Shown: piece by piece, positions 3,811 through 55,163 of the stretch
How positions within the stretch are numbered: the stretch's first letter is position 1
Layout: each line of letters starts with the position of its first letter
Source: Escherichia phage vB_EcoM_LNA4
Sequence record: MZ311864.1
Length of the DNA stretch: 64,000 nt
Reading direction: 5' to 3' (one strand)
Program-made: the position numbers and the translations under genes
Notes under the pieces: generated by a model
What the model saw: the letters and a program-made list of their open reading frames with translations, nothing else
Database searches by the model: none
Told to the model about the DNA's origin: nothing

Positions 3811-3836
3811 AAAAAGGCCCCGAAGGGCCTTTATTA
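3811..3836. terminator. bidirectional rho-independent terminator
   Basis: GGCCC-CGAA-GGGCC hairpin flanked by A-run and T-run, immediately after gene ending at 3834. Confidence 0.6.
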
Positions 3837-4985
3837 AGATATTGCTGTTGTGTCTAGAGGTACAAAAGTATAAACCCTTGTTGTGCCAAGACCCGGCAGC
3901 AGTCCGGTGGTGGTATCCTGACCAGTTCCGTACAACGTTCCGTTTATCAGAAGATATGCTGCTTTATAAGCACCACGGGTTCCGTGGTATTCCCCGTCCA
4001 AAACCTGTGTTCCAAGTGCTGTGAAAGAATACTTTATACTTTGCCCTATAACACCATCACCCTGCAACTGACCACTGCTTGTACCAGTGTAGTAAACCCT
4101 ACCAGTTGGGTGCAGATACCTGGCGGAGTACAACCCGATGTACAACTTAGGCGCTCCCTTGGATTTATCCGTGATGTTTGGTGCTACAGCAGTCGGATTT
4201 GAGTAGTTCACACCACCAGTTGCCCCTGTTCCAAGGCTTCCGTCAAATTGTCGTCCTTGAGCATACAAGACATACGCAGATCCGGTCTCCACAACCCTGA
4301 ACCAACCATTAGGTCCGGCTACAATATCCACCACAGTGTTGACGGCGGCTTGTAATGTCCAAGTTGACACAACTGTGGATGTTACCCCAGCCTGTCCAAA
4401 GTCAGAGTTCCCAGCAACATACACAGCCCCCGTGTTCAGCAGCATGTATGAGGTATCAATACTCCCCCAATCAAAGGTGATTTTCTTAACGTTGGTGAAG
4501 TCGGTCCTCATGGTCAGTTGTCTTACGGTTGTTGTATTCCCCTGACCGAGACCGCCGTTACCATTTCTACCGCACATTGCGTATTGCCCGTTTGTGAACA
4601 CCACAGCTATAGATTGATACCCTATGGACACTTCCTTAATGGTCAGCCCAGCCGTGTACGTCATATATGCAGAGACATCCACCGGGGAGGTTATAGTAGA
4701 TCCGAGGGCTGTTGGGAACATAAAGTTGTTACCCATAAACATCCAGCGCCCATCAACCATTTTGAAGAGGACTGCACGGAAACCCACCCAAAAATCCTCA
4801 ACCCCAGCAGACAAAAGTCGCCAAGTCGTTGTTGTCGCCCCTGTTCCACTAAAATACTGGTCACCAATTGTGTAGAGGTTCCCAGATGTTGACAGGGCAA
4901 CGATACCGTTGTCACCAGCATCGAATTTCTTAATATTCCCTGTCGGTACTGGGGTCTTCCCACCAGCTAACATCATCTCGAACAT
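3834..4985 (-). CDS. RCC1-like repeat (beta-propeller) protein
   Basis: 383 aa, Gly/Thr-rich, about five repeats of the form G-N-x-x-G-Q-L/A-G (GRNGNGGLGQG, AGNSDFGQAG, GTSSGQLQGDG...). Confidence 0.5.
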   Translation of the reverse strand: MFEMMLAGGKTPVPTGNIKKFDAGDNGIVALSTSGNLYTIGDQYFSGTGATTTTWRLLSAGVEDFWVGFRAVLFKMVDGRWMFMGNNFMFPTALGSTITSPVDVSAYMTYTAGLTIKEVSIGYQSIAVVFTNGQYAMCGRNGNGGLGQGNTTTVRQLTMRTDFTNVKKITFDWGSIDTSYMLLNTGAVYVAGNSDFGQAGVTSTVVSTWTLQAAVNTVVDIVAGPNGWFRVVETGSAYVLYAQGRQFDGSLGTGATGGVNYSNPTAVAPNITDKSKGAPKLYIGLYSARYLHPTGRVYYTGTSSGQLQGDGVIGQSIKYSFTALGTQVLDGEYHGTRGAYKAAYLLINGTLYGTGQDTTTGLLPGLGTTRVYTFVPLDTTAIS

Positions 4986-6275: not shown

Positions 6276-6485
6276 TCATCCAACACCCCTTACCTGTATT
6301 GTTTTTGCAACATGGAGCAATGTGTCGATAACAAGATTGTACTTACCCCTAGAAACAGAGTTTTTCGGTTCCTTGTCCCTTAAAAATCGGCAGGTATCTA
6401 TCTGGCTAATGATCTCTTCCATGATCTCTTTTCTCTCAAGCATCTTGCCTAATTCCTCTCTTGCATCACCGTACTCATCGGACAT
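6276..6485 (-). CDS. hypothetical protein
   Basis: 69-aa ORF with AAGGAG RBS. Confidence 0.3.
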   Translation of the reverse strand: MSDEYGDAREELGKMLERKEIMEEIISQIDTCRFLRDKEPKNSVSRGKYNLVIDTLLHVAKTIQVRGVG

Positions 6486-7623
6486 TCTTTTCTCCTTTTG
6501 CTACCTTCAGCATGTGGATTGTGTTCTCCAGGTCTTTCTTCGGCTTACTGTACAGCTTACGACCGTGTTTTGCAAGGAACTTCTCCAGATAGTCCAGTGC
6601 TTTGAATTCAACAATTTCGTTGATAACCTCTGGCACGTTGAACTCTTCCTTCAGCATCTGGTATGCTGCCTTTTTCACCGTAATTGGTGTGCGGCCTTGG
6701 CTGATTGCCATTTCAGTAACCAATCGCTTACGGCTATCAGACCAGTTAGCATTGATAGGGAATGCCTTATATCCGTTTTGCTCCTGGAAAATCTTCACTG
6801 CACGTTCTTGCAGGGTGTCTTTGTCATAACCACGACAATAGTAGCTCGACTCATCCTGATGGTCGAAGTGCTCCAGGTCGTCGTAGTCGCCAACACCGAG
6901 GTCTGCCAGTAACAGAACATCGTCCGACTGAGACAGAAGGCGGGTAGCATTCCAGCGTACCTCAAAATCACTCGCCTGGTTGCGATCACGGTCGAGTGTG
7001 AACACCTCAGCAGGGAAATCGTAGTCGAACTTATACTTACCCTTAACCGTGGTAACGTACAGCCCATTCACATATAGGCGGCAGTCATTGTTGTTCTTTT
7101 TGGCATAAGCCTTACCAAAGCAACGGTCTTCGACGACAATCTCAAGATCTGTACGGGCTGGCGCGTAATTCTTTTTAACAAGATTCATTGCAGAATCAGG
7201 AACGCCGCTGATCGTGATCGTTACACGGTCTTCATCGCGACTTAAAAACTGGTTTTCGATGATATTGATAGACAAAACCTTCTCATCAAAAAGGTCGTCC
7301 ATCTCGAACTGTGGTTTCCACAGGTCTTTCCCGTTTTTCACCGTGATATCAGCGCCTTCACGCAACAGGCACAGGAAGCCCACCTTCATCCCCTCACCGA
7401 ACTTACCGATCTTGGTGTCGTCATCCTCTTTGGTGGTTTTACCCATAAGAAGGGACTGGATAGGCATCTTGCCACCGCAGGAAGAAATGGTGATCGAGTC
7501 ATTGTCGAACAGCACAGTATGATCACCTGCGTCAATGGCGTTTTGAATAAGCTCACGGATGCCTTCCCACCATGACCAATGGGCTACATATGTTGGGGCA
7601 ATGCTTAACTTGATACTTTTCAT
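6475..7623 (-). CDS. GHKL-type ATPase domain protein
   Basis: N-terminal Bergerat-fold motif ELIQNAIDA and G-rich box GKFGEGMKVGF; start set at MKSIKL with AAGGAGA RBS. Confidence 0.55.
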   Translation of the reverse strand: MKSIKLSIAPTYVAHWSWWEGIRELIQNAIDAGDHTVLFDNDSITISSCGGKMPIQSLLMGKTTKEDDDTKIGKFGEGMKVGFLCLLREGADITVKNGKDLWKPQFEMDDLFDEKVLSINIIENQFLSRDEDRVTITISGVPDSAMNLVKKNYAPARTDLEIVVEDRCFGKAYAKKNNNDCRLYVNGLYVTTVKGKYKFDYDFPAEVFTLDRDRNQASDFEVRWNATRLLSQSDDVLLLADLGVGDYDDLEHFDHQDESSYYCRGYDKDTLQERAVKIFQEQNGYKAFPINANWSDSRKRLVTEMAISQGRTPITVKKAAYQMLKEEFNVPEVINEIVEFKALDYLEKFLAKHGRKLYSKPKKDLENTIHMLKVAKGEKNVR

Positions 7624-7742
7624 AGTTTCTCCTTGAAACGTTTTATGTCCAAGCATTATTACACAAAGAAAACAGATGTCAACCATTGACTAAGGGTTTT
7701 TATCCTGATAATCTTACCAGACACATACAGAGGAGACATAAA

Positions 7743-10347: not shown

Positions 10348-10546
10348 TTCTTCTCCTCATCACATAGTGAAGCAAAGTTGCCAGCGGCCAGGCGAACCCG
10401 ACCGCGAAACAAATCTCGGACCAGTCATGATCCGACTTCGCCTTGTAAACCTGCTTAAGAACTTTATCGTTCTCCATCTTCACGGAGTATACCACAGCAA
10501 TAACAGCATATGCAACCCCAATTATGCCGATAGCTGCCTCAAGCAT
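10334..10546 (-). CDS. small membrane protein
   Basis: 70 aa, hydrophobic N-terminus. Confidence 0.35.
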   Translation of the reverse strand: MLEAAIGIIGVAYAVIAVVYSVKMENDKVLKQVYKAKSDHDWSEICFAVGFAWPLATLLHYVMRRRNAAA

Positions 10547-11612
10547 CCATACTCGCCCAGCAGATATCCTGCGCTGTCATCAGAACACGAGATGCTAACT
10601 CAAGGTCGGTATATTTCGGAAGATCAGTCTTTTTGTACAGGTCTTCGCGGATATATCGGTCCTTCTCGTCGGCCCATGCCAAGAGTTCGTCAAGAGTCCA
10701 CTTGCCAGCACGGATATCCAGCAGTTCCTGAGCGTCAGGGCGTTTCACCAGGACCTTGCCGTCAGTCAGGATCTCTTCAGCCATACGCATCAGACGCACA
10801 AGGTGCATAGCGTGTTTGGTGTCATAACCAAAATTCACCTCAAGCTGGTGACGCACTTCGTTACGGTTCTGTTTCCAAGTCCAGTAGTTGCGGTGCTTCT
10901 CTTTTGCCTGCTTGTGTTCCTCTGCCAAGTATTTCACAATGAACACAGGTTTACGGCGCTTATCCGTATCAGACAGTTGCTGGTAATCTACATGGCGAAT
11001 AGAACCATCTGCATTGAACATACCGGAACTGCTGAAGTTTTCCATAACACCATAGATGTCATTACCGTAAGGGACAAGGACACACATATCATTCAGATTG
11101 GTCATTGCCTCCATGAAACGTTCATGTTTTACAACACCTGCAAGGAAAGGGTGTTCGCTGTAGTTGTGTACCAACCGGAAGAATTCCTTTTGTGTTGGCT
11201 TGGCCTCCGGCTGAGGGTTGGTGATCCATTTATCATGACCACGGATACGCTTCAACTGAGCCATAGCGTAACCAGAAAAGCTAAATGCCACCTTACTTGA
11301 CATAAGCTCAGGGGCCATTGTTCGCAGGTACGCGTAAGCTTCTGAACTTGAGATCAGGTCTTTTTCATCAACGAACATCAATTCGATAATGTTTGGGTTC
11401 ATCTCTACAAACAACTTCATGAAGTTCGTCAGTTCATAGATCTTCCCGTCCTCCTCATCAACAAGCGTCTGCTCTTTGATATTGAAGAATGGGGTACGGA
11501 TGAACTTCTGCTCCGCACAGAAAAGACCACGGATATCCACATCCGATGTTGGGAGGTTTGTCCCGTATGCGAGGCTACCGGAGTAGCAGCGCATCATATC
11601 AAAAGTTTTCAT
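10539..11612 (-). CDS. Pol-beta-superfamily nucleotidyltransferase
   Basis: Motif GSLAYGTNLPTSDVDI (GS...SDxD) near N-terminus; start set at MKTFDMM with AAGGAG RBS. Confidence 0.55.
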   Translation of the reverse strand: MKTFDMMRCYSGSLAYGTNLPTSDVDIRGLFCAEQKFIRTPFFNIKEQTLVDEEDGKIYELTNFMKLFVEMNPNIIELMFVDEKDLISSSEAYAYLRTMAPELMSSKVAFSFSGYAMAQLKRIRGHDKWITNPQPEAKPTQKEFFRLVHNYSEHPFLAGVVKHERFMEAMTNLNDMCVLVPYGNDIYGVMENFSSSGMFNADGSIRHVDYQQLSDTDKRRKPVFIVKYLAEEHKQAKEKHRNYWTWKQNRNEVRHQLEVNFGYDTKHAMHLVRLMRMAEEILTDGKVLVKRPDAQELLDIRAGKWTLDELLAWADEKDRYIREDLYKKTDLPKYTDLELASRVLMTAQDICWASMDA

Positions 11613-11620
11613 ATATCTCC

Positions 11621-12004
11621 TTAAGAGGTGACAAGTTTCATTGGGCGCTTCATATCCCAGAAGTTGAGAAGTCCCTGACACAGTTGTTTTGTCGGCAGGC
11701 CTTCTTTGTTCATTGGGGCCTCATCACGAAGCCGACGAATCTCTTCCAGAAGAAGAATCACTTCGTCAGGATAATAACCCGTAGGCTCTTCGGCCTTGAT
11801 GATACACTCACCGGACTTCCATTTAGACATCGAGTAGCGATGTTCCGGATCTGGGTGGTTAGGCCACGAATCAACCAAGATTTTTGCCTTATTTCCCCTT
11901 ATCTCCTTCACTACTCCGGGGCGTAATTGGTTGTATCCCCAGTAGAGATACACCTCGTCGCCCAGCTTAAGTCTTTCACCACGAACATCGTTCATATTAA
12001 CCAC
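11621..12004 (-). CDS. hypothetical protein
   Basis: 127-aa ORF. Confidence 0.4.
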   Translation of the reverse strand: MVNMNDVRGERLKLGDEVYLYWGYNQLRPGVVKEIRGNKAKILVDSWPNHPDPEHRYSMSKWKSGECIIKAEEPTGYYPDEVILLLEEIRRLRDEAPMNKEGLPTKQLCQGLLNFWDMKRPMKLVTS

Positions 12005-12515: not shown

Positions 12516-13004
12516 CTATTCTCCTTTTAGCCGGAATGATTTGATCATTGTGATCAGGTCTTTTTCAGGTTGCGTATAGTTGTGGATGGTGTTACCCATC
12601 TCGTCACGATACTGATTAGCAATCTGAGGAGGAGTATAACCCGGCAGTTTTACCAAGTCAACAACTTCTGCGTATTGTGGTGCATACATATACTCCGGGA
12701 GCACAACAGCAACTGCTGTCATCGCTCCATTCAGGGCTTCCTGTTCTTCACAGAACGAGGCCCAAGGGTATGTTGCGCTCAGAGGCTTCAGTTTCTCACA
12801 CAGTTCCTGCAATGAGGACTGATAGCCACCGTTGAGGACGATTACAGTCTTGTCACGATCAGCCCAGTCCCACAACAGGTTTCCGGCATTGTTGCGGCGC
12901 TGGGAATAATCAAGGAACATCTCAGACATCGCGTGTGCTGACTGAATCCCGGCATGAATGCCAGCAATATATTGGTTTACTACGCAGTACATGCGTGTCT
13001 TCAT
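12516..13004 (-). CDS. hypothetical protein, possible PTH2-like fold
   Basis: N-terminal VVNQYIAGIHAGIQSAHA loosely resembles the GKxAAQCxHA signature of peptidyl-tRNA hydrolase 2; weak. Confidence 0.3.
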   Translation of the reverse strand: MKTRMYCVVNQYIAGIHAGIQSAHAMSEMFLDYSQRRNNAGNLLWDWADRDKTVIVLNGGYQSSLQELCEKLKPLSATYPWASFCEEQEALNGAMTAVAVVLPEYMYAPQYAEVVDLVKLPGYTPPQIANQYRDEMGNTIHNYTQPEKDLITMIKSFRLKGE

Positions 13005-14202: not shown

Positions 14203-15456
14203 CTACCACTTAATTTCACGCCGGGTGATGCTACGGATAGCGTCAATACGAGCTACACGAATCGCCTCACCAATCTCGATACCGCTCTTATCCTTTGCAA
14301 GACACTCAGCAGAGATCACCTTTGTATCAACGGCTTTCATGCAACGGAAAGCATCCATCAGCACGTAACCCTGTGGGTATGGCTCTGCCATTTTGGTTGG
14401 GCCACGACCCTTCGCATCACAGAAACAAGCATCAGCCAGAGCAGAGACCTTCATAGCGGTTTTCGCGCTTGCCACGTTGCCAGCGGCTTCAAACAGCTTC
14501 ATCAGTGAGCGGGGTTTTGCACCTTTGTTGCCTCCACGAGGAGCAATGCAGTGTACACGCGTGTGGTGCTCAGTCACATACAGAGCTACATCACGGAAGT
14601 CGTTAGGAACACGGATACGCTCGCACAACTCACGCACTGGTTCAAGACCCTCTTCTTCGTGACCGATCAGATTACCATACTTACGGAAAGTGAGCGCTTT
14701 ACCGAAGTCGTGGCACAGAACAGCGAACTTGGTGTATGGGTTTGCCTCATAGATGTCTGCCACATCAAGACACAGCAGCGTATGAATGAAAGCATCCCCT
14801 TCCGGGTGGTGTTCCGGTGGTTGTGCTACACCACGGAGGGCATCAAGCTCAGGCAATTCACCAAGCTCTGCCATTGCCTCCGCGTAGGCCCGGAAGTTAT
14901 CAGAGGCCAGAGCCTTCTCCATTTCTTTCCACTTGCGCTCACCGCTGATGTGTGACAGACCATAACGGTTATTGAAGCACAGGGCTTTAGTATCTGCATG
15001 GATTTCCCACTCTTTACCCAACTGGGCTTTAAAGCGGTAGACACGTAGGATACGCAGCGGATCGTCAAGGAATGCCAGCGTTGTATGACGCAGGATTTTC
15101 TTTTCGATATCATACTGACCACCAAACGGGTCAATGATCTCACCTGTCTCAAGGTCTTGAGCCATAGCGTTGATCGTCAGGTCACGACGAGACAGATCCT
15201 CCACCAATGTCACATCGGGGCTGAAGAATGTCTCGAAGTCGGTATGACCGTTACCAGTCTTACGCTCAGTACGGGCCAGGGCATACTCTTCGTTGGTTTC
15301 AGGATGCAGGTATACTGGAAAAGCAGCGCCAACCTGGGTGAAACCTTTATTGATCATTTCTTCGTGCGTTGCACCCACAACCACGTAGTCACGGTCATGA
15401 ACTTCACGACCAAGCAAACCATCACGCACAGCGCCGCCTACCAAATATACCTTCAT
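14203..15456 (-). CDS. cca: tRNA nucleotidyltransferase (CCA-adding enzyme) with HD domain
   Basis: N-terminal MKVYLVGGAVRDGLLGREVHDRDYVV head motif and HD-domain histidines (HHPEGD); 417 aa. Confidence 0.8.
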   Translation of the reverse strand: MKVYLVGGAVRDGLLGREVHDRDYVVVGATHEEMINKGFTQVGAAFPVYLHPETNEEYALARTERKTGNGHTDFETFFSPDVTLVEDLSRRDLTINAMAQDLETGEIIDPFGGQYDIEKKILRHTTLAFLDDPLRILRVYRFKAQLGKEWEIHADTKALCFNNRYGLSHISGERKWKEMEKALASDNFRAYAEAMAELGELPELDALRGVAQPPEHHPEGDAFIHTLLCLDVADIYEANPYTKFAVLCHDFGKALTFRKYGNLIGHEEEGLEPVRELCERIRVPNDFRDVALYVTEHHTRVHCIAPRGGNKGAKPRSLMKLFEAAGNVASAKTAMKVSALADACFCDAKGRGPTKMAEPYPQGYVLMDAFRCMKAVDTKVISAECLAKDKSGIEIGEAIRVARIDAIRSITRREIKW

Positions 15457-19384: not shown

Positions 19385-19708
19385 CTATCGAGCTATCAGA
19401 TATTTCACTTCACCGTCATCCCCACGGTAACCGGAATCTACCACATGATAAGGACCAAAATTGTCCAATCTTACGATATCACCCACCACAAGGGTCTTCC
19501 TTGACTCATATTCCAAGGACTCGGTAAGATGTTTGAACTGATCCGTATCGTCTGTGGTGCAGACATAACGAATTTCACCATTATTTTCAGTGACATAAAT
19601 CCGCTTGCCTGTCTTTTTAGCCAAAACCCAGCCCTTTTTGTCATATTTTACAAGACAATAAGACTGATTCAGCTTATCTCTAAACCTGGACACTTTACCC
19701 ACCCCCAA
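19385..19708 (-). CDS. hypothetical protein
   Basis: 107-aa ORF. Confidence 0.35.
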   Translation of the reverse strand: MGVGKVSRFRDKLNQSYCLVKYDKKGWVLAKKTGKRIYVTENNGEIRYVCTTDDTDQFKHLTESLEYESRKTLVVGDIVRLDNFGPYHVVDSGYRGDDGEVKYLIAR

Positions 19709-20190
19709 ACTTTTCCAGTGTTGATTTTGTAGATTGTGTTCTGACTTACACCGAAGACCTTAGCAATATCCCTTTGCTTCAACCCTTGCTGTAGTAGCTG
19801 CTTTATCTCAGCAACGGACTCTTCTGTCAGTACACTCGTCCCATTCTTCTCCCCTTTACAAGGCACTCTGCCGTTGAAAAGATAAGAGTGCTTAGAGTTC
19901 CATGCTAAAGTACACCACTCCAGATTATCAACATGAGGGTTGAGTATGTTCCCATCTTTATGGTTTACAACATCGTATCCGTTAGGGTTACTCAGGTGTA
20001 CAATAGCCACCAATCTGTGAACAGAGCAATCCTTTCTGGCTCCGTTCTTATGAAGTGTGACCCTTGGATAACCATTTGTAGGTATACTCCACTTCAGCTT
20101 CCTACCAGTTTTACGATTTATAACTTCACCACCCTTCGAAACATAGTAAGAGCTTAAGAAATCCTCAACGTCTTGCAACTTTCCTCTCAA
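19669..20190 (-). CDS. HNH homing endonuclease with C-terminal HTH
   Basis: NHKDGNILNPHVDNLEWCTLAWNSKHS HNH core plus RDIAKVFGVSQNTIYKI helix-turn-helix. Confidence 0.6.
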   Translation of the reverse strand: MRGKLQDVEDFLSSYYVSKGGEVINRKTGRKLKWSIPTNGYPRVTLHKNGARKDCSVHRLVAIVHLSNPNGYDVVNHKDGNILNPHVDNLEWCTLAWNSKHSYLFNGRVPCKGEKNGTSVLTEESVAEIKQLLQQGLKQRDIAKVFGVSQNTIYKINTGKVWGWVKCPGLEIS

Positions 20191-34057: not shown

Positions 34058-34545
34058 TCGTTACTCAAATACTCGTCCAAATACCGGACATCCAGTTCCC
34101 ATTCCTCTCGCTTACTCCGTTCATGATACAAGGCAAATGCCTCGCTAACGTACTTCTCTGCGACCTGTCTGGAGACACCGTTCACCTTCATGAAGTGACG
34201 AAGGGCGATCTCTCCTCTTCCACGAATACCAGCAAGGCCGATATGTTTTACTTCGTGACATGACGGGCAGAGCGCGATAAGACCTTTCAGCGTTATCTTA
34301 CCATTACCAAAGTCCCAGATTTCGTGACACTCAACAGGGTGCTTATTCCCTTTACCACCACAAATCTCACATCTGTAATTGGCTTTGGCATAGCATTTCT
34401 TTCTTACGACATCCCATTGGGATTTAGTGAGGTGAGAGCGTAAGTTAGTAAACCAAGCTGTTTTCGGAACCAGTTCAATCTCTAATTTCAATTCACCTCC
34501 ACGAAGCTGCGATAACGACATCAATTGCTCTTTCCCAGCATTCAC
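34054..34545 (-). CDS. HNH homing endonuclease
   Basis: CEICGGKGNKHPVECHEIWDF...CPSCHEVKH. Confidence 0.6.
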   Translation of the reverse strand: MNAGKEQLMSLSQLRGGELKLEIELVPKTAWFTNLRSHLTKSQWDVVRKKCYAKANYRCEICGGKGNKHPVECHEIWDFGNGKITLKGLIALCPSCHEVKHIGLAGIRGRGEIALRHFMKVNGVSRQVAEKYVSEAFALYHERSKREEWELDVRYLDEYLSND

Positions 34546-35005
34546 CGAGAAGATTTAATCCTTGCCAGTTGGCAGGATCATCAATGCGTGTATCATATTC
34601 ATTCATTTTAACTCCCCAGATTGCGTCATATGGGGATGCCTCTACAAAGCGACGACCAGCATCTCTGTGGGTCAGTGCTGCCTCAAGGATGGATCGATTC
34701 GCCTTCATTTTCAGAACAAGACCGTTTGTTACAATGTCCATCCGGTTTTCTTCCCAGACACTATTGTCAAAGTCCCTGACTTTACGGCCCAGCGCTTTTG
34801 CCTCATTTGGATTATTAACCGTGGCAATACGTGCAGCAATCTCTTTATCATCAAAGAGCATTGCTTTCTGGAACATCATAAAGTGCTCAACCGTGAAGAA
34901 TTCATAGCCACCACAACGGATAGGGATTACCTGACGGAAGTGGTTGCTGAACATATCACGGTAAGTGAAGAAGAAAACATGCTTATCAGTTATTCTCATC
35001 ACCAA
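34493..35005 (-). CDS. NADAR (YbiA-like) domain protein
   Basis: FSNHF, TVEHFMMFQKAMLF, NPNEAKALGRKV and EASPYDAIWGV match NADAR/DUF1768 signatures. Confidence 0.7.
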   Translation of the reverse strand: MVMRITDKHVFFFTYRDMFSNHFRQVIPIRCGGYEFFTVEHFMMFQKAMLFDDKEIAARIATVNNPNEAKALGRKVRDFDNSVWEENRMDIVTNGLVLKMKANRSILEAALTHRDAGRRFVEASPYDAIWGVKMNEYDTRIDDPANWQGLNLLGECWERAIDVVIAASWR

Positions 35006-38723: not shown

Positions 38724-40027
38724 TAGTAGACTGGCTCCCATGTTAATGTGTTAAGTTCACGTACACTCTGCCCCACTGGGAACTGAGGTACACCATCATC
38801 AGTACGCGACTGGAATGTAAAGTTGATGAAACCACCAACCAACAGCAACATCTTCGCCTGAGAACGTTCTGCGTGTGTGCCTTTCATTTTACAGTTGAAT
38901 CGTGTTCCGTCCTGTTCTTCGCAAAGCAGAACACCTTCACCATTTTTGTCCTCTACAGAATCAAGGACTTTGGCCTCACCGTCCTGGAACAGCTTCCATT
39001 TCTGGAGATCAGTGGATCGCTGCCCGAACTCATATTTACCTTTGAAGTTTCGGATGATAACACCCTCAAACCCGGCTTCCATGTAATAACCGATAAAGCG
39101 TTTCACAGATGCTTCGTCTTTCACGAACTCGCCATGAACGATAGCAATCTTAGGAACATCAATCTCACATTCTACAGCTTCAGCCACAGCATTAAGATCA
39201 GCCATACGGGTTTGATCATGATCCTGAGAGTGCCAAGGACTGTGTGCATTCACTGGAATATCAAAGATATGATACTCAAGGTCAAGACTCGAATAACCGC
39301 TATAACGATCAACATCCTTCACAGGTTTATACGTTGAAACAGCCCACACGTTACCGTCAAAGTCTTTCCAGAGGTGTTCCCCTGCTGCAACCGCCTTGTT
39401 GTAACGCTTGATATCTGCTTGATAATCTTTTTCGATCTCAGCTTCAATCTGCTCAGGTGTACGCCACTTCTTAGCGAGAGCAACAATCTTCTGTAGACTC
39501 AGGCCATGAATATACAGTTCCCCATCGAACTTGTCAAACCCGGAATGCTCTGCAAGTTCTTTAACCTGTTGCAAAAGAGCACCCTGCACTGGATACGTCT
39601 TATTACCACGGCTATTGAACACTGGAATGCCGTCCTTGTCAAGCGTGACAAGAGCACGAACGCCGTCGAGCTTTGGCTGCACATAGGCAGGATAAACGAT
39701 AGCTGAAAATCGTTTGATCGCATCATGCGCCAGCATAGGAGAGAAGTTCTCTTCCGTCTGCAACTCTTCCTTAGTCTCACGATAACCTAAACGGACTTGC
39801 TTTTCCCATTTGGATCTTGCTTCAAGAACCGCTTGGAATACGGCAGTAGTCTCATTGGAACGGCCAATGTTTTTCATTTCACACTTGGTACGCTTTTGTT
39901 GAATCTTTCCGTTTTCCTTACCGAAAGAAACGACAACCTCATCACCTTCTGTGGTTACATTCCAAACTTGGTACGATCCGTCTTTGTTGAGAGCGTACAG
40001 TGTTGGTGTGTCTAAACTAATTGACAT
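38723..40027 (-). CDS. ATP-dependent DNA ligase
   Basis: Motif I KLDGVRAL, motif III FDGELY, motif IV EGVIIRN; 434 aa. Confidence 0.85.
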   Translation of the reverse strand: MSISLDTPTLYALNKDGSYQVWNVTTEGDEVVVSFGKENGKIQQKRTKCEMKNIGRSNETTAVFQAVLEARSKWEKQVRLGYRETKEELQTEENFSPMLAHDAIKRFSAIVYPAYVQPKLDGVRALVTLDKDGIPVFNSRGNKTYPVQGALLQQVKELAEHSGFDKFDGELYIHGLSLQKIVALAKKWRTPEQIEAEIEKDYQADIKRYNKAVAAGEHLWKDFDGNVWAVSTYKPVKDVDRYSGYSSLDLEYHIFDIPVNAHSPWHSQDHDQTRMADLNAVAEAVECEIDVPKIAIVHGEFVKDEASVKRFIGYYMEAGFEGVIIRNFKGKYEFGQRSTDLQKWKLFQDGEAKVLDSVEDKNGEGVLLCEEQDGTRFNCKMKGTHAERSQAKMLLLVGGFINFTFQSRTDDGVPQFPVGQSVRELNTLTWEPVY

Positions 40028-40803
40028 TATTTCTCCTTCTTCTGTAAAGGCGTTTTTCCTTCAAGGTGGTCTTCAACCATCTTGATTAAACCGGGATTGC
40101 TGAAAGCATCAACAGCACCTGTACGATAAACGATAACACCCGCATCTTCATACATCAACTGCTCATCATAGCGAACACCGGGGTTAACAACCACCACCTT
40201 TGTTCCTCTCATGACAGCAGGGAAAAGTTCCCAGTTGAAGTTGATCACTGTGTTTGAACATCCAACCACAATCACCATATCCTCAGATGTCAAGCTGTCC
40301 AAGGTTGAGTATAGCTGCCCGTATGCAGGCGCAGTTTCACCAAAAAAGATAACGTTAGGCTTACACCAACCATAATCATCTGGGTCAATCTGCTCATAAC
40401 CAACATCAATGATCTTTTTAGGTGATCCAGCCTCAGTCTCAATCACCAACTCTTTCAGATAACCATGAATATAAAGCGTATCTTCTTTAGGAACACCTGC
40501 ACGTTCCAATAGATCATCAACGTTAGTTGTCAAGTTAATAACCTGGTTCGGATAGTTTTTATACCACTCTGCCACACGCATATGTGCAGCATTAGGATGC
40601 ACAGTTTGCAGTTCTGCACGACGCTTGTTATAAAAGGTGTGCGTCTTATGGTAAAAATTACCACGAAAGGCATGAATGTTGCAGACCTCTTCAAGGTCAT
40701 ACTCATCCCACAAGGCCTTACCGGAGTCGGTGTCAGTACGGAATGTACGAACACCGCTCTCAGCAGAGAAACCAGCACCACTAATTACATATAAACGCCT
40801 CAT
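40027..40803 (-). CDS. Sir2-family NAD-dependent deacylase/NAD-utilising enzyme
   Basis: GAGFSAESGVRTFR, TTNVDDLLERAG, IHGYL and VIFFGE sirtuin motifs; no obvious Zn-ribbon Cys4. Confidence 0.75.
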   Translation of the reverse strand: MRRLYVISGAGFSAESGVRTFRTDTDSGKALWDEYDLEEVCNIHAFRGNFYHKTHTFYNKRRAELQTVHPNAAHMRVAEWYKNYPNQVINLTTNVDDLLERAGVPKEDTLYIHGYLKELVIETEAGSPKKIIDVGYEQIDPDDYGWCKPNVIFFGETAPAYGQLYSTLDSLTSEDMVIVVGCSNTVINFNWELFPAVMRGTKVVVVNPGVRYDEQLMYEDAGVIVYRTGAVDAFSNPGLIKMVEDHLEGKTPLQKKEK

Positions 40804-41024: not shown

Positions 41025-41909
41025 TCACTGTAATTTCAATGAGTTACGCAGACGACGCTCTTGAGCATCACGGGTTTCCTGCGGAACGCTGTGAATAGAA
41101 TCATTGCCATGACGGTTCTCTACCACCAAGCTAATGACGCGATACCCATTCTCGGCTGCGAGGTCGAGGTATGGTTTCAGTTCTTTTTCACTGGTAGAGG
41201 TGTTAGACACGATGATCCTACGGAAATTCCAACCCATCATGTCCTTAACTTCTGACTGGCACCATGTGTGTGCCGCCTGAATATTCTCAGGTTTCCAGTC
41301 ATAAACACCATCTTCCGTATAGTGGAATTTATCTGCTTCACAGACAGGCCACAAACCCTCTGACAGCATCTTTCCCGTTGTCATATTACGAGCACCAATC
41401 AGATACGCACCAGGTTGTTCGTGAACTATATGCGGGTCAGAATCATCACAAATTTCAAACATTAAAGTCAAACAAGATTGCCCTACATGTGTCCACATGG
41501 ATGGGTGGTTTGCCTTTTCAACACCACTCAAAATATGAGTTTTTGCAATATCTGCAAATTCGGAATCAAGAGTTCCGGTGGTGGATACTAAAACATCGCC
41601 TTTATAAATTGAGGCCGCTGCCATAAAGCCATTAACTTTACGAGGTACACACACCAACTGGTCTCGTGGAACATCGGTATTATTCTCGAAGCGGTTGAAA
41701 ATCTTCGTGAAAGGCCAGATAACAACGTTGTCTTCTGCATCAACAACCATGCCACGGCACTCCAGAAGACGTGCGTCTGTGTGCCACAGGTTATCCCAGA
41801 ACACATTGTTCTTATATTTCAGAACAGACAGACCCGCGAACGGGCCTTCGGTATAAGTCTTTTTGGTTACAAGCTTTTTAGCAACAAGGTCATCTACGTT
41901 AAATTTCAT
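41025..41909 (-). CDS. hypothetical protein
   Basis: 294-aa ORF; contains RKVNG but motif order does not fit a ligase. Confidence 0.45.
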   Translation of the reverse strand: MKFNVDDLVAKKLVTKKTYTEGPFAGLSVLKYKNNVFWDNLWHTDARLLECRGMVVDAEDNVVIWPFTKIFNRFENNTDVPRDQLVCVPRKVNGFMAAASIYKGDVLVSTTGTLDSEFADIAKTHILSGVEKANHPSMWTHVGQSCLTLMFEICDDSDPHIVHEQPGAYLIGARNMTTGKMLSEGLWPVCEADKFHYTEDGVYDWKPENIQAAHTWCQSEVKDMMGWNFRRIIVSNTSTSEKELKPYLDLAAENGYRVISLVVENRHGNDSIHSVPQETRDAQERRLRNSLKLQ

Positions 41910-42474: not shown

Positions 42475-43071
42475 TTATCCGTGATCAGCAGTGTAAATTG
42501 GTTTAGCAAGGCACATCAGAACAGCTTCACGCATCGTCAAAGGACGACCATGCACATCCCAACCCACATCAAGAATACGTCCACCAGGGGCCGTGTAGGA
42601 GCCGTGGCTGTGACCGTGCAGCATTACCGACCCGTGGTGAGCTTTATTCCATGATGCAAACGGATAGTGGGACATACACACCTTCACCTTTTCTTTCCCG
42701 GTGCTGAACTCAATTTCCTTATAGTCCACGACTTCATGACCAAACTCACGGAAGATACGTTTTGTCTGATGGTTGTCATGATTACCACCAACCAGAATGA
42801 TCTTCCCATTGATACGGCTCAGGATATCACGAACTTTTGGCTCAACTTGCTTACCATAGGCAATAACGAAATCACCAAGGTGTGCCACCACATCGTCAGG
42901 CTTGACGTTTTTGTTCCACGTCTTAACCATGTCATCGTTCATTTTGACAACGGAGGCTGAGTCTTCTTTCGGACCATACAGGTTCTTACGGAACTTATCA
43001 CACGATGGGAAACCAAGAATGTTGGTGTGCCACCAGTGAGTGTCTGACGTGACGTGATCAATTTGAATCAT
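42475..43071 (-). CDS. calcineurin-like metallophosphoesterase (Ser/Thr phosphatase-like)
   Basis: GDFVIAYG, GGNHD and GHSHG metal-binding motifs. Confidence 0.7.
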   Translation of the reverse strand: MIQIDHVTSDTHWWHTNILGFPSCDKFRKNLYGPKEDSASVVKMNDDMVKTWNKNVKPDDVVAHLGDFVIAYGKQVEPKVRDILSRINGKIILVGGNHDNHQTKRIFREFGHEVVDYKEIEFSTGKEKVKVCMSHYPFASWNKAHHGSVMLHGHSHGSYTAPGGRILDVGWDVHGRPLTMREAVLMCLAKPIYTADHG

Positions 43072-54284: not shown

Positions 54285-54313
54285 TTGCAAAAGATTGTTT
54301 TCACTGATAAAGT
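54285..54313 (+). promoter_or_regulatory. sigma70-like promoter
   Basis: TTGCAA, 17-bp spacer, TAAAGT upstream of tRNA at 54322. Confidence 0.3.
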
Positions 54314-54321
54314 AATTACAT

Positions 54322-54410
54322 GGTTCTTTGACCGAGAGGCCGATGGTAGCAGGCTGTTAACCTGCCTGGAGTAATCCACGACGAAGGTTCGAATCCTTCA
54401 GGAACCGCCA
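54322..54410 (+). tRNA. tRNA with GTT anticodon (Asn) and long variable arm
   Basis: Canonical loop CTGTTAA on GCAGG/CCTGC stem, 17-nt variable arm with TGGA/TCCA stem, T-arm GAAGGTTCGAATCCTTC, G73, CCA. Confidence 0.6.
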
Positions 54411-54443
54411 AATTAGGTGATACGCTACCTTAAGTGCGAACTT

Positions 54444-54520
54444 GAAAATTAATGGGGCCGTGGCTGACAAGGTAATGGTGCCGCACTGTCTATGCGGAAA
54501 ATGAGGGTTCGATCCCCTTC
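54444..54520 (+). tRNA. tRNA-Asp (GTC)
   Basis: Loop CTGTCTA on CCGCA/TGCGG stem, T-arm GAGGGTTCGATCCCCTT, CCA. Confidence 0.6.
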
Positions 54521-54713
54521 GGTCTCGCCAATTTGATATGTTGATGTAAATTGCCGGAAGGCACTCAAAATGAGTTCGACATATCAAACCAAATACGCTC
54601 TTGCAGGAAAGGTTAGCCTCCCTGCAATGTCACACTAGGTGATCAGAGCGGATCAAATTAGCTAGCCAGCGATACCAGTTGCAGTGTCTGGGACAATTAA
54701 AATTCTGCACCTT

Positions 54714-54791
54714 CGGAGCGTAGCGCAGTCTGGTCAGCGTGGGAGCCTTGGATGCTCTGGGTCGCAGGTTCGAATCCTGCCGCTCCGACCA
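54714..54791 (+). tRNA. tRNA-Pro (TGG)
   Basis: Loop CTTGGAT, T-arm GCAGGTTCGAATCCTGC, CCA. Confidence 0.8.
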
Positions 54792-54796
54792 ATTTA

Positions 54797-54872
54797 GCAG
54801 GTATAGTTCAACTGGACAGAGCATCAGTTTACGAAGCTGAGAATCGGGGTTCGAATCCCTGTATCTGCACCA
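54797..54872 (+). tRNA. tRNA-Arg (ACG)
   Basis: Loop TTACGAA, T-arm CGGGGTTCGAATCCCTG, CCA. Confidence 0.8.
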
Positions 54873-54907
54873 AATTAAGGCTTGGATTTCTTCGGACCCA
54901 AGCGCAC

Positions 54908-54984
54908 GGGCGATTGATGGAATTGGTATACGTGTCGGATTTAGATTCCGAATTTTGGGGGTTCGAGTCCCCTGTCGCCCACCA
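54908..54984 (+). tRNA. tRNA-Leu (TAG), short variable arm
   Basis: Loop TTTAGAT on TCGGA/TCCGA stem, A73, T-arm GGGGGTTCGAGTCCCCT, CCA; no long variable arm. Confidence 0.6.
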
Positions 54985-54991
54985 ATCCTTC

Positions 54992-55067
54992 GGGACTGTA
55001 GCTCAGTTGGTAGAGCACCTGATTGAAGATCAGGGTGTCGGTGGTTCGAATCCACTCGGTCCCGCCA
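54992..55067 (+). tRNA. tRNA-Phe (GAA)
   Basis: Loop TTGAAGA on CCTGA/TCAGG stem, T-arm GGTGGTTCGAATCCACT, CCA. Confidence 0.8.
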
Positions 55068-55073
55068 AATAAT

Positions 55074-55146
55074 TGCGAGCTAGAATTCTGGTGAATTCAC
55101 GAGTCTCATAAGCTTGTTCAGAGGGGTTCGATTCCGCTGCTCGCAA
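55074..55146 (+). tRNA. tRNA with CAT anticodon (Met or Ile2), no encoded CCA
   Basis: Perfect acceptor TGCGAGC/GCTCGCA, loop CTCATAA, T-loop TTCGATT; 3' end lacks CCA. Confidence 0.6.
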
Positions 55147-55163
55147 CTAACAGAGGACTTAAT

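Follow-up and report, generated by a model that had tools for sequence, protein, structure and literature searches.

Within a stretch of 64,000 nucleotides (nt) of Escherichia phage vB_EcoM_LNA4 (sequence record MZ311864.1; hereafter the window), a minus-strand gene codes for a nucleotidyltransferase (NTase) that is assigned here to the RlaP family (Table 1). The open reading frame (ORF) ends at 10539 and its longest reading, from GTG 11681, would give 380 amino acids (aa). We discarded this start, since both the ribosome-binding site and the length of the orthologues point to ATG 11612. TAAGGAGATAT lies directly before this ATG and contains AAGGAG, 5 nt upstream; the stop codon of the upstream gene (11621-11623) overlaps this Shine-Dalgarno sequence; and 1074 nt is likewise the length given to the orthologues in the annotations of Cronobacter phage GAP31 and Enterobacter phage EC152. 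ATG 11612 is therefore taken to be the true start, giving a product of 357 aa. The region shows 88-90% nucleotide identity (megablast) to GAP31, EC152 and 4MG (genus Seunavirus, Vequintavirinae), the protein is 96% identical to its EC152 and 4MG orthologues, and "nucleotidyltransferase" is the existing annotation of orthologues in the records of these relatives.

The protein matches PF10127, which Pfam describes as RlaP, "RNA repair pathway DNA polymerase beta family", scoring 50 bits where the gathering cut-off is 23 (E 4.2e-13), and phrog_388 of the PHROGs collection over its full length (E 1.8e-77). A homologue search returned 1410 proteins, the best 120 of which all carry PF10127 and are approximately 350 aa long, and an exhaustive profile search yielded 9637 cluster representatives at E<=1e-3 (1560 at E<=1e-30). 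By tblastn, the family was found in 372 phage records, covering Vequintavirinae, jumbo and T4-like phages (as nrdC.11) as well as Gordonia, Bacillus and Streptomyces phages. We conclude that, as far as its sequence tells, the gene encodes an intact RlaP-family Pol-beta NTase of the 'long' phage type, as does T4 nrdC.11. A preliminary description of the window, made from the sequence alone, had read the gene as a Pol-beta NTase on the strength of a GS...SDVDI motif. That motif is present as GSLAYGTNLPTSDVDI at aa 12-27, and the broad reading holds and is narrowed by the profile search to PF10127. The ties that the description had drawn to CD-NTases, MenT/AbiEii toxins and antibiotic NTases were given up, given the Pfam assignment to RlaP and the full-length match to phrog_388.

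The invariant residues of the motif argue against a chance match. Across 42 aligned homologues (50-88% identity), G12, S13, Y16, G17, T18, S23, D24 and D26 are invariant, and so are, further along the chain, E54, D55, K57, Y59, E60 and E77. When T4 NrdC.11, the Acinetobacter phage NrdC.11 and two short canonical RlaPs were added, the invariant set was reduced to G12, S13, G17, D24, D26, D55, G114 and Y115 in the N-terminal part and to R254, G262, D264, K266, R273, E280, G285 and G303 in the C-terminal part. In this wider alignment, E60 is replaced by Ser in the T4-like proteins and D55 is retained throughout, which identifies D55, rather than E60, as the third catalytic carboxylate. The preliminary description would have fallen if the active-site carboxylates had varied among homologues, and the invariance of D24, D26 and D55 speaks for it. 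The catalytic set of hG[GS], DxD and third carboxylate is thus complete, and the enzyme is predicted to be active.

An AlphaFold2 (AF2) model with a predicted local distance difference test score (pLDDT) of 91 shows an NTase core and a helical domain, between which an insertion of approximately 125 aa is placed. The Pfam match covers aa 8-124 of the 357-aa coding sequence (CDS), corresponding to 31-147 in the 380-aa GTG reading, and the alignment to the PF10127 hidden Markov model (HMM) extends to profile position 197 once the insertion is removed. The insertion is absent from short canonical RlaPs and has a confident predicted fold with no match in the PDB. Downstream of it, aa 254-349 match the C-terminal halves of Bcp1_127 (E 3e-11) and MissRona gp68 (E 2e-11), each of which spans PF10127 profile positions ~18-248 of 249. 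From these alignments, the C-terminal domain is homologous to that of the short canonical RlaPs, with which it shares the motif R..GYDTK..VRL, and it is HEPN-like in shape. The N-terminal half, too, is homologous to these short RlaPs, so that the homology extends to both halves of the protein. Hence, of the C-terminal ~250 aa that had been described as unassigned, the helical domain can now be attributed to RlaP; the insertion still matches no PDB fold. We also considered the C-terminal domain as a HEPN RNase, for the string RNEVRH (aa 250-255) fits Rx4H. This candidate was rejected, since the His is either H or S across the family and the invariant residue is R254, not R250.

The GYDTK motif is also where inteins are found in the family. 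Inteins of ~400 aa with a homing-endonuclease-like middle occur in at least 9 of the 150 best cluster representatives (680-760 aa; P0121, P0122, P0125, P0126, P0139, P0145, P0180, P0182, P0206), inserted exactly within GYD/TK (...YGYD/C...HGN/[TCS]KHAMH..., slashes marking the junctions), which in the window is equivalent to D264/T265 (nt ~10818-10821). Insertion at this point marks the invariant motif GYD/TK as functionally critical. Other homologues carry additional domains. In six of them (P0136, P0170, P0174, P0187, P0211, P0213), the C-terminus of a long-form RlaP continues into a DEDDh 3'-5' exonuclease of the DnaQ/pol III epsilon-like type (E 7e-21 to PDB 2gui) and then into a further extension, so that 3'-end trimming and 3'-end addition would be combined in one protein. 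P0225 (631 aa) is a tandem in which a half resembling the short canonical RlaPs (GSRAWGF...SDYDV) precedes a long-form half. The recurrence of the exonuclease fusions suggests that these enzymes work on nucleic-acid 3' ends.

For CD-NTase/cGAS-like (CBASS) enzymes, the Pfam, NCBIfam and PADLOC searches contained no qualifying match. The MenT/AbiEii (DUF1814) toxins had no match in Pfam or PADLOC, and the genes nearby encode a DUF7205 protein, a membrane protein and a PTH2-like protein. The MntA antitoxin of HEPN-MNT pairs reached 13.6 bits in NCBIfam against a cut-off of 60 and measures ~100-140 aa, compared with 357 aa here, where the helical domain also has no conserved Rx4-6H. Sequence comparison likewise did not place the protein among the antibiotic NTases (ANT(4')/KNTase, Lnu). 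A PADLOC search of the protein for defence systems returned nothing, and sequence searches with both the protein and the 42-sequence profile found no relative in a PDB copy that evidently lacks the PfRlaP structure. At the level of structure, the nearest solved folds are HalB, ANT(4')/KNTase, LinB and MNT, that is, NTases bearing HEPN-like helical domains. The kanamycin and lincosamide NTases, MNT-HEPN pairs and Hailong HalB thus share the fold with no detectable sequence similarity, and they differ in substrates and genomic contexts and in the RNxxxH-like string, which at aa 250-255 has a non-conserved His. The fold relationship to HalB would be compatible with an enzyme that, in immune signalling or its subversion, makes signalling nucleotides as cGAS/CD-NTases do, makes oligonucleotides as HalB does, or acts as a nucleotide sponge. 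Set beside the RlaP assignment and the empty CD-NTase and PADLOC searches, we regard such a role as very improbable indeed, the least probable of the alternatives weighed here.

What is known of RlaP chemistry comes from the Pseudomonas fluorescens and P. aeruginosa enzymes (PfRlaP and PaRlaP), which add one or two nucleoside monophosphates (NMPs) to an RNA 3'-OH from any nucleoside triphosphate (NTP), and also from dATP, are inactive on DNA and protein, prefer Mn2+, and favour the 5' half of an anticodon-cleaved tRNA mimic (10.64898/2025.12.29.696909). Treatment with RlaP before ligation partly restores the aminoacylation of a tRNA that lacks one nucleotide, and Carruthers, Fatma and Huang propose that RlaP counters nucleotide-excising nucleases such as RloC; T4 NrdC.11 was placed in their RlaP cluster 5, with function unknown (10.64898/2025.12.29.696909). 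Iyer et al. (2021) described RlaP as the commonest end-restoring NTase of jumbo phages, within an RNA-repair toolkit of RNA ligases, RlaP, CCA-adding enzyme, Thg1, PTH2 and PhoH (PMC7824862).

The vB_EcoM_LNA4 protein resembles the canonical RlaPs in scoring above the Pfam gathering threshold, in its hG[GS]/DxD/D set, and in the modelled layout of NTase plus helical domain. A neighbourhood of RNA ligase or other RNA-repair genes, to which the family owes its name, is seen in some relatives (CCA enzyme, Pnkp or AAA_33, Metallophos), whereas others have the gene between uvsX and uvsW. In contrast to the compact two-domain layout of ~250 aa seen in the crystallised PfRlaP, it is phage-encoded, is ~100-125 aa longer and carries the insertion between its two parts, and its gene lies next to neither RtcB nor any ligase and is linked to a CCA-adding enzyme and a PTH2-like gene instead. 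We take the long form as the mark of a subfamily rather than as a reason for exclusion, because T4 NrdC.11, which is counted as a member, also has an insertion. Both are long-form phage RlaPs of ~340-357 aa with all family-invariant residues and an insertion at the same position, and the Acinetobacter phage NrdC.11 aligns over aa 1-310 (E 8e-11). However, identity to T4 NrdC.11 is only ~21%, the insertion in T4 measures just ~90 aa and shows no evident sequence similarity, and neither T4 nrdC.11 (44-60 kb stretch) nor the Lazarus locus has an adjoining CCA enzyme gene.

The genes from the CCA-adding enzyme to RlaP are on the same strand and densely packed, and a scan of 8-16.5 kb for promoters and terminators found nothing above the shuffled expectation that would separate the two. 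Between them lie small ORFs, a PTH2-like 'hydrolase' gene and, directly upstream of RlaP, the DUF7205 gene, whose adjacency to RlaP was seen in 10 viral loci and on the contig of P0088 and is kept in Seunavirus-like relatives. The PTH2-like protein scores 1.1e-3 against PF01981, under the Pfam cut-off, while a profile built from 10 orthologues, 8 of which match PF01981, hits the archaeal Pth2 2zv3 at 9.4e-4. The resemblance to peptidyl-tRNA hydrolase 2 of the archaeal/eukaryotic type is thus weak yet reproducible.

Table 1. Features of the RlaP gene and of genes considered with it, in window coordinates
Feature	Position	Strand	Basis and remarks
RlaP-family nucleotidyltransferase CDS	10539..11612	-	357 aa plus stop; PF10127, phrog_388, orthologues
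Shine-Dalgarno AAGGAG	11617..11622	-	Direct reading of the sequence; overlaps DUF7205 gene stop
GSLAYGTNLPTSDVDI motif, aa 12-27	11532..11579	-	ORF translation and alignment of homologues
N-terminal Pol-beta NTase core and linker helices, aa 1-130	11223..11612	-	Pfam, invariant residues, AF2
Insertion of ~125 aa (aa ~125-251)	10860..11240	-	Small alpha/beta domain, then long helix
C-terminal helical domain, aa 252-357 (~105 aa)	10542..10859	-	Invariant R254, G262, D264, K266 (GYDTK), R273, E280, G285, G303
DUF7205 gene, directly upstream of RlaP	11621..12004	-	PF23835 at 9e-49
PTH2-like 'hydrolase', 162 aa; probable partner (inferred)	12516..13004	-	phrog_3668 at 3e-58
CCA-adding tRNA nucleotidyltransferase with HD domain; probable partner (inferred)	14203..15456	-	PF01743, PF12627, PF01966, phrog_2244
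Chimeric Rnl1-type ligase / AAA_33-like ORF	41025..41909	-	Pfam, PHROGs, BLASTP, blastn
Metallophosphoesterase; candidate 3'-end healing enzyme (inferred)	42475..43071	-	PF00149, phrog_547
Array of 22 tRNA genes; possible substrates	49029..55147	+	ARAGORN

The context on which the preliminary description had drawn, a large tRNA set together with a CCA-adding enzyme, is indeed found in the window, with 22 tRNA genes. The 3' CCA is encoded by 20 of the 22. The exceptions are tRNA-Ser(gct) (53879-53971, plus strand), which ends in ...TCC and abuts the next tRNA gene, and a second tRNA-Met (55074-55147, plus strand), which has no encoded CCA as called by ARAGORN; both would need CCA completion. 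This tRNA set bears on the idea of an offensive, MenT/AbiEii-like modifier, which would place nucleotides on the 3' ends of host tRNAs to block charging and so favour the tRNAs of the phage. The chemistry would be the same, namely non-templated NMP addition to an RNA 3'-OH, and the phage does bring 22 tRNAs of its own. Yet these end in the same CCA and would also be targets, no AbiEii/MenT profile or PADLOC match and no evident antitoxin-like partner was found, and the gene is linked to repair enzymes rather than to toxin modules. We therefore consider this role highly unlikely.

The linkage to the CCA-adding enzyme recurs among relatives. Eight diverse homologues encoded on long contigs were compared. 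On three of these contigs, which are unrelated to each other, the gene for the CCA enzyme runs into the beginning of RlaP, and on four more it lies 0.6-2.9 kb upstream on the same strand, making seven of the eight; the lone contig with no CCA gene nearby is 279 kb long. Among 80 viral loci from IMG/VR, 58 offered at least 3 kb of upstream sequence, and in 19 of these 58 the CCA gene is located within 2.9 kb upstream of RlaP. The PTH2-like gene lies between CCA and RlaP in 14 IMG/VR loci, and in L038 the three genes are contiguous and overlapping. Beside the CCA-RlaP pair, the contigs carry either a T4-type Pnkp or a small AAA_33 P-loop protein together with a metallophosphoesterase, as in the gene row Metallophos - x - x - AAA_33 - CCA - RlaP of L011. 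In the Seunavirus lineage, a metallophosphoesterase, an Rnl1-type ligase and a small 'ATPase' are encoded 30 kb from RlaP. This 'ATPase' shares 45% identity (E 9e-40) with the AAA_33 protein that adjoins CCA-RlaP in L011, and the phosphoesterase of the window shares 39% (E 3e-44) with that of L011. From the two homologies we conclude that the two gene sets recombine across phages as one functional neighbourhood. The lineage resembles the jumbo-phage toolkit in combining RlaP, CCA enzyme, PTH2-like protein, PhoH, Rnl1 and phosphoesterase, here in a non-jumbo genome of ~148 kb. It differs in that RlaP travels with the CCA and PTH2-like genes rather than with a ligase, and in that the ligase gene is truncated in this genome.

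The truncation takes the form of an in-frame chimera. Its residues 1-174 match residues 1-172 of the GAP31 Rnl1 and its residues 172-294 match residues 13-135 of the small AAA_33-like 'ATPase', with loss of the P-loop (BLASTP, with GAP31_172 and GAP31_169 compared). The PHROGs assignments change accordingly along the chain, from phrog_562 (aa 1-185) to phrog_2071 (aa 179-294), and PF09511 is covered at profile positions 1-152 of 227 only. Compared with EC152 (blastn) and GAP31, approximately 1 kb is missing, comprising the C-terminal half of the ligase and the P-loop of the ATPase. From the example of T4 Rnl1, we take ligase motifs IV and V to lie in the missing part. Among the matches listed, the 12 best phage records show no such junction. 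If the fusion is not an artefact of assembly, the phage probably lacks an RNA ligase and a kinase-like protein of its own, with RlaP left intact.

Based on the family membership, the conserved active site, the domain architecture and the gene linkage described above, we propose a substrate, a number of added nucleotides and a biological role for the enzyme. We consider it fairly probable, and the most likely function, that it appends one or two nucleotides at the 3'-OH of RNA, probably tRNA, within a phage RNA-repair toolkit. In this hypothetical scenario, (i) D24, D26 and D55 would catalyse the reaction with a divalent metal, Mn2+ being preferred in the tested enzymes; (ii) damaged RNA, and tRNA in particular, would gain one or two nucleotides at its 3'-OH by template-independent addition; (iii) the addition would replace nucleotides lost to ribonucleases of the host or of competitors; and (iv) the restored RNA would then be resealed, or its CCA end rebuilt. 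The toolkit would be dispersed over the genome and include the CCA enzyme with its HD phosphohydrolase domain, the PTH2-like hydrolase, the metallophosphoesterase, the AAA_33 kinase-like protein and the Rnl1-type ligase, and the repaired tRNA end could be either the anticodon loop or the acceptor end.

Several observations weigh against this proposal. Pfam directly aligns the N-terminal half of the protein only, the HMM reaching profile position 141. In the window, the RlaP gene is not adjacent to an RNA ligase, the Rnl1-type gene being 30 kb away and present as the truncated chimera, in which the profile region with motifs IV and V is missing. No polynucleotide kinase was recognised when 40 ORFs of the window were scanned with Pfam and PHROGs; nothing closer turned up than a dNMP-kinase-like protein and, within the chimera, the remnant that has lost its P-loop. 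The assayed RlaPs are short bacterial forms without the 125-aa insertion and include no phage member, not even T4 NrdC.11, and the role of RlaP as an antidote to nucleotide-removing nucleases is itself still a proposal (10.64898/2025.12.29.696909). Finally, approximately 55 environmental T4-like loci encode RlaP between uvsX and uvsW and not near RNA-repair genes. These loci (L029-L093, e.g. L073, L069 and L074; 44-50% identity) share the order gp32 - UvsX(RecA) - RlaP - 172 aa - 152 aa - UvsW. As further features of this group, the UvsW gene of L074 carries an intein, and in six of the loci a metallophosphoesterase gene follows ~400 nt downstream of RlaP.

This gene order raises the question of whether the long subfamily tails or repairs DNA ends or RNA primers during replication and recombination. 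The gp32 - UvsX - RlaP - x - x - UvsW synteny would fit such a role, as would the homologues fused to a pol III epsilon-like DEDDh exonuclease and the acceptance of dATP by the tested RlaPs. However, these RlaPs do not extend DNA, the replication genes of T4-like phages are conserved as a block, so that their order is weak evidence of function, and the partners in the Seunavirus lineage are tRNA enzymes. DEDDh exonucleases, moreover, also include RNA 3' trimmers such as RNase T and oligoribonuclease. Taken together, we judge action on DNA or primer ends to be improbable.

The disrupted ligase weakens a strict pathway of RlaP followed by Rnl1 in this phage and tips the balance slightly towards a role at tRNA 3' ends that needs no ligase, alongside the CCA enzyme. 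One could imagine that RlaP, the CCA-adding enzyme with its HD domain and the PTH2-like hydrolase act on the acceptor end of tRNA instead of the anticodon loop. Acyl or peptidyl groups would be removed by the hydrolase, and the 3' end would be cleaned by the HD domain or the phosphoesterase; RlaP would put back discriminator or stem-end nucleotides that are beyond the reach of the CCA enzyme, and the latter would then rebuild the CCA. As a counter-defence, the phage would in this way oppose host toxins by which the 3' ends of tRNAs are truncated, extended, damaged or blocked. In favour of this, the CCA and PTH2-like genes are the tightest conserved partners of RlaP, with overlapping reading frames, and the tRNA 3' end is where all three types of enzyme act, as is established for CCA enzymes and Pth2. 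Moreover, no ligase is needed, which fits a disrupted Rnl1 beside an RlaP that is still 96% identical to its closest relatives. On the other hand, when offered the cleaved-tRNA mimic, the tested RlaPs favoured its broken 3' end in the anticodon loop over its acceptor 3' end, the assignment to PTH2 falls short of the Pfam threshold, and neighbours such as Pnkp, kinase and phosphoesterase suit break-and-seal repair equally well. Restriction of the module to the acceptor end is thus a possible but rather unlikely reading. With similar reserve, we tentatively suggest that long-form RlaP, CCA enzyme and PTH2-like protein might form a translationally coupled acceptor-end module in Seunavirus-like and several marine and environmental phages, in which the fold-orphan insertion would serve tRNA-end recognition.

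Some further genes of the window were recorded outside these subjects. An ORF of 173 aa (19669-20190, minus strand) with NUMOD4, HNH_3 and HTH matches is homing-endonuclease-like; the PhoH gene, on the same strand, is located ~600 nt upstream of it. The early-gene region encodes a 383-aa protein with RCC1-like repeats (3834-4985, minus strand) and a protein of 403 aa that weakly matches GHKL/HATPase_c_3 (6475-7686, minus strand). Genes related to NAD (34493-35005, 40027-40803 and ~44.6-47.8 kb) include NADAR-domain and SIR2-family proteins by Pfam, and from the synteny with GAP31 the window should further encode a ribose-phosphate pyrophosphokinase as well as a nicotinamide phosphoribosyltransferase. 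The SIR2 gene is shared with EC152 and 4MG and is missing from GAP31 at the same position.

In summary, our analysis presents a clean and well-conserved example of a long-form RlaP, from a family that is very large (9637 cluster representatives for this profile) and whose first biochemistry was described only in a 2025 preprint. A role of RlaP in phage RNA repair has already been published, and the gene adds no new principle to it. Modestly new are the precise dissection of the domains, with an insertion that is a fold orphan, the assignment of the third carboxylate to D55, the repeated linkage of CCA, PTH2-like and RlaP genes in phages other than jumbo phages, the site of intein insertion in the GYD/TK motif and the finding that the ligase gene is disrupted here. 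The comparisons indicate a partnership of RlaP with a CCA-adding enzyme and a PTH2-like hydrolase that can be put to the test. If acceptor-end repair were true, phage tRNA repair would reach beyond the classical T4 Pnkp/Rnl1 pathway of the anticodon loop.

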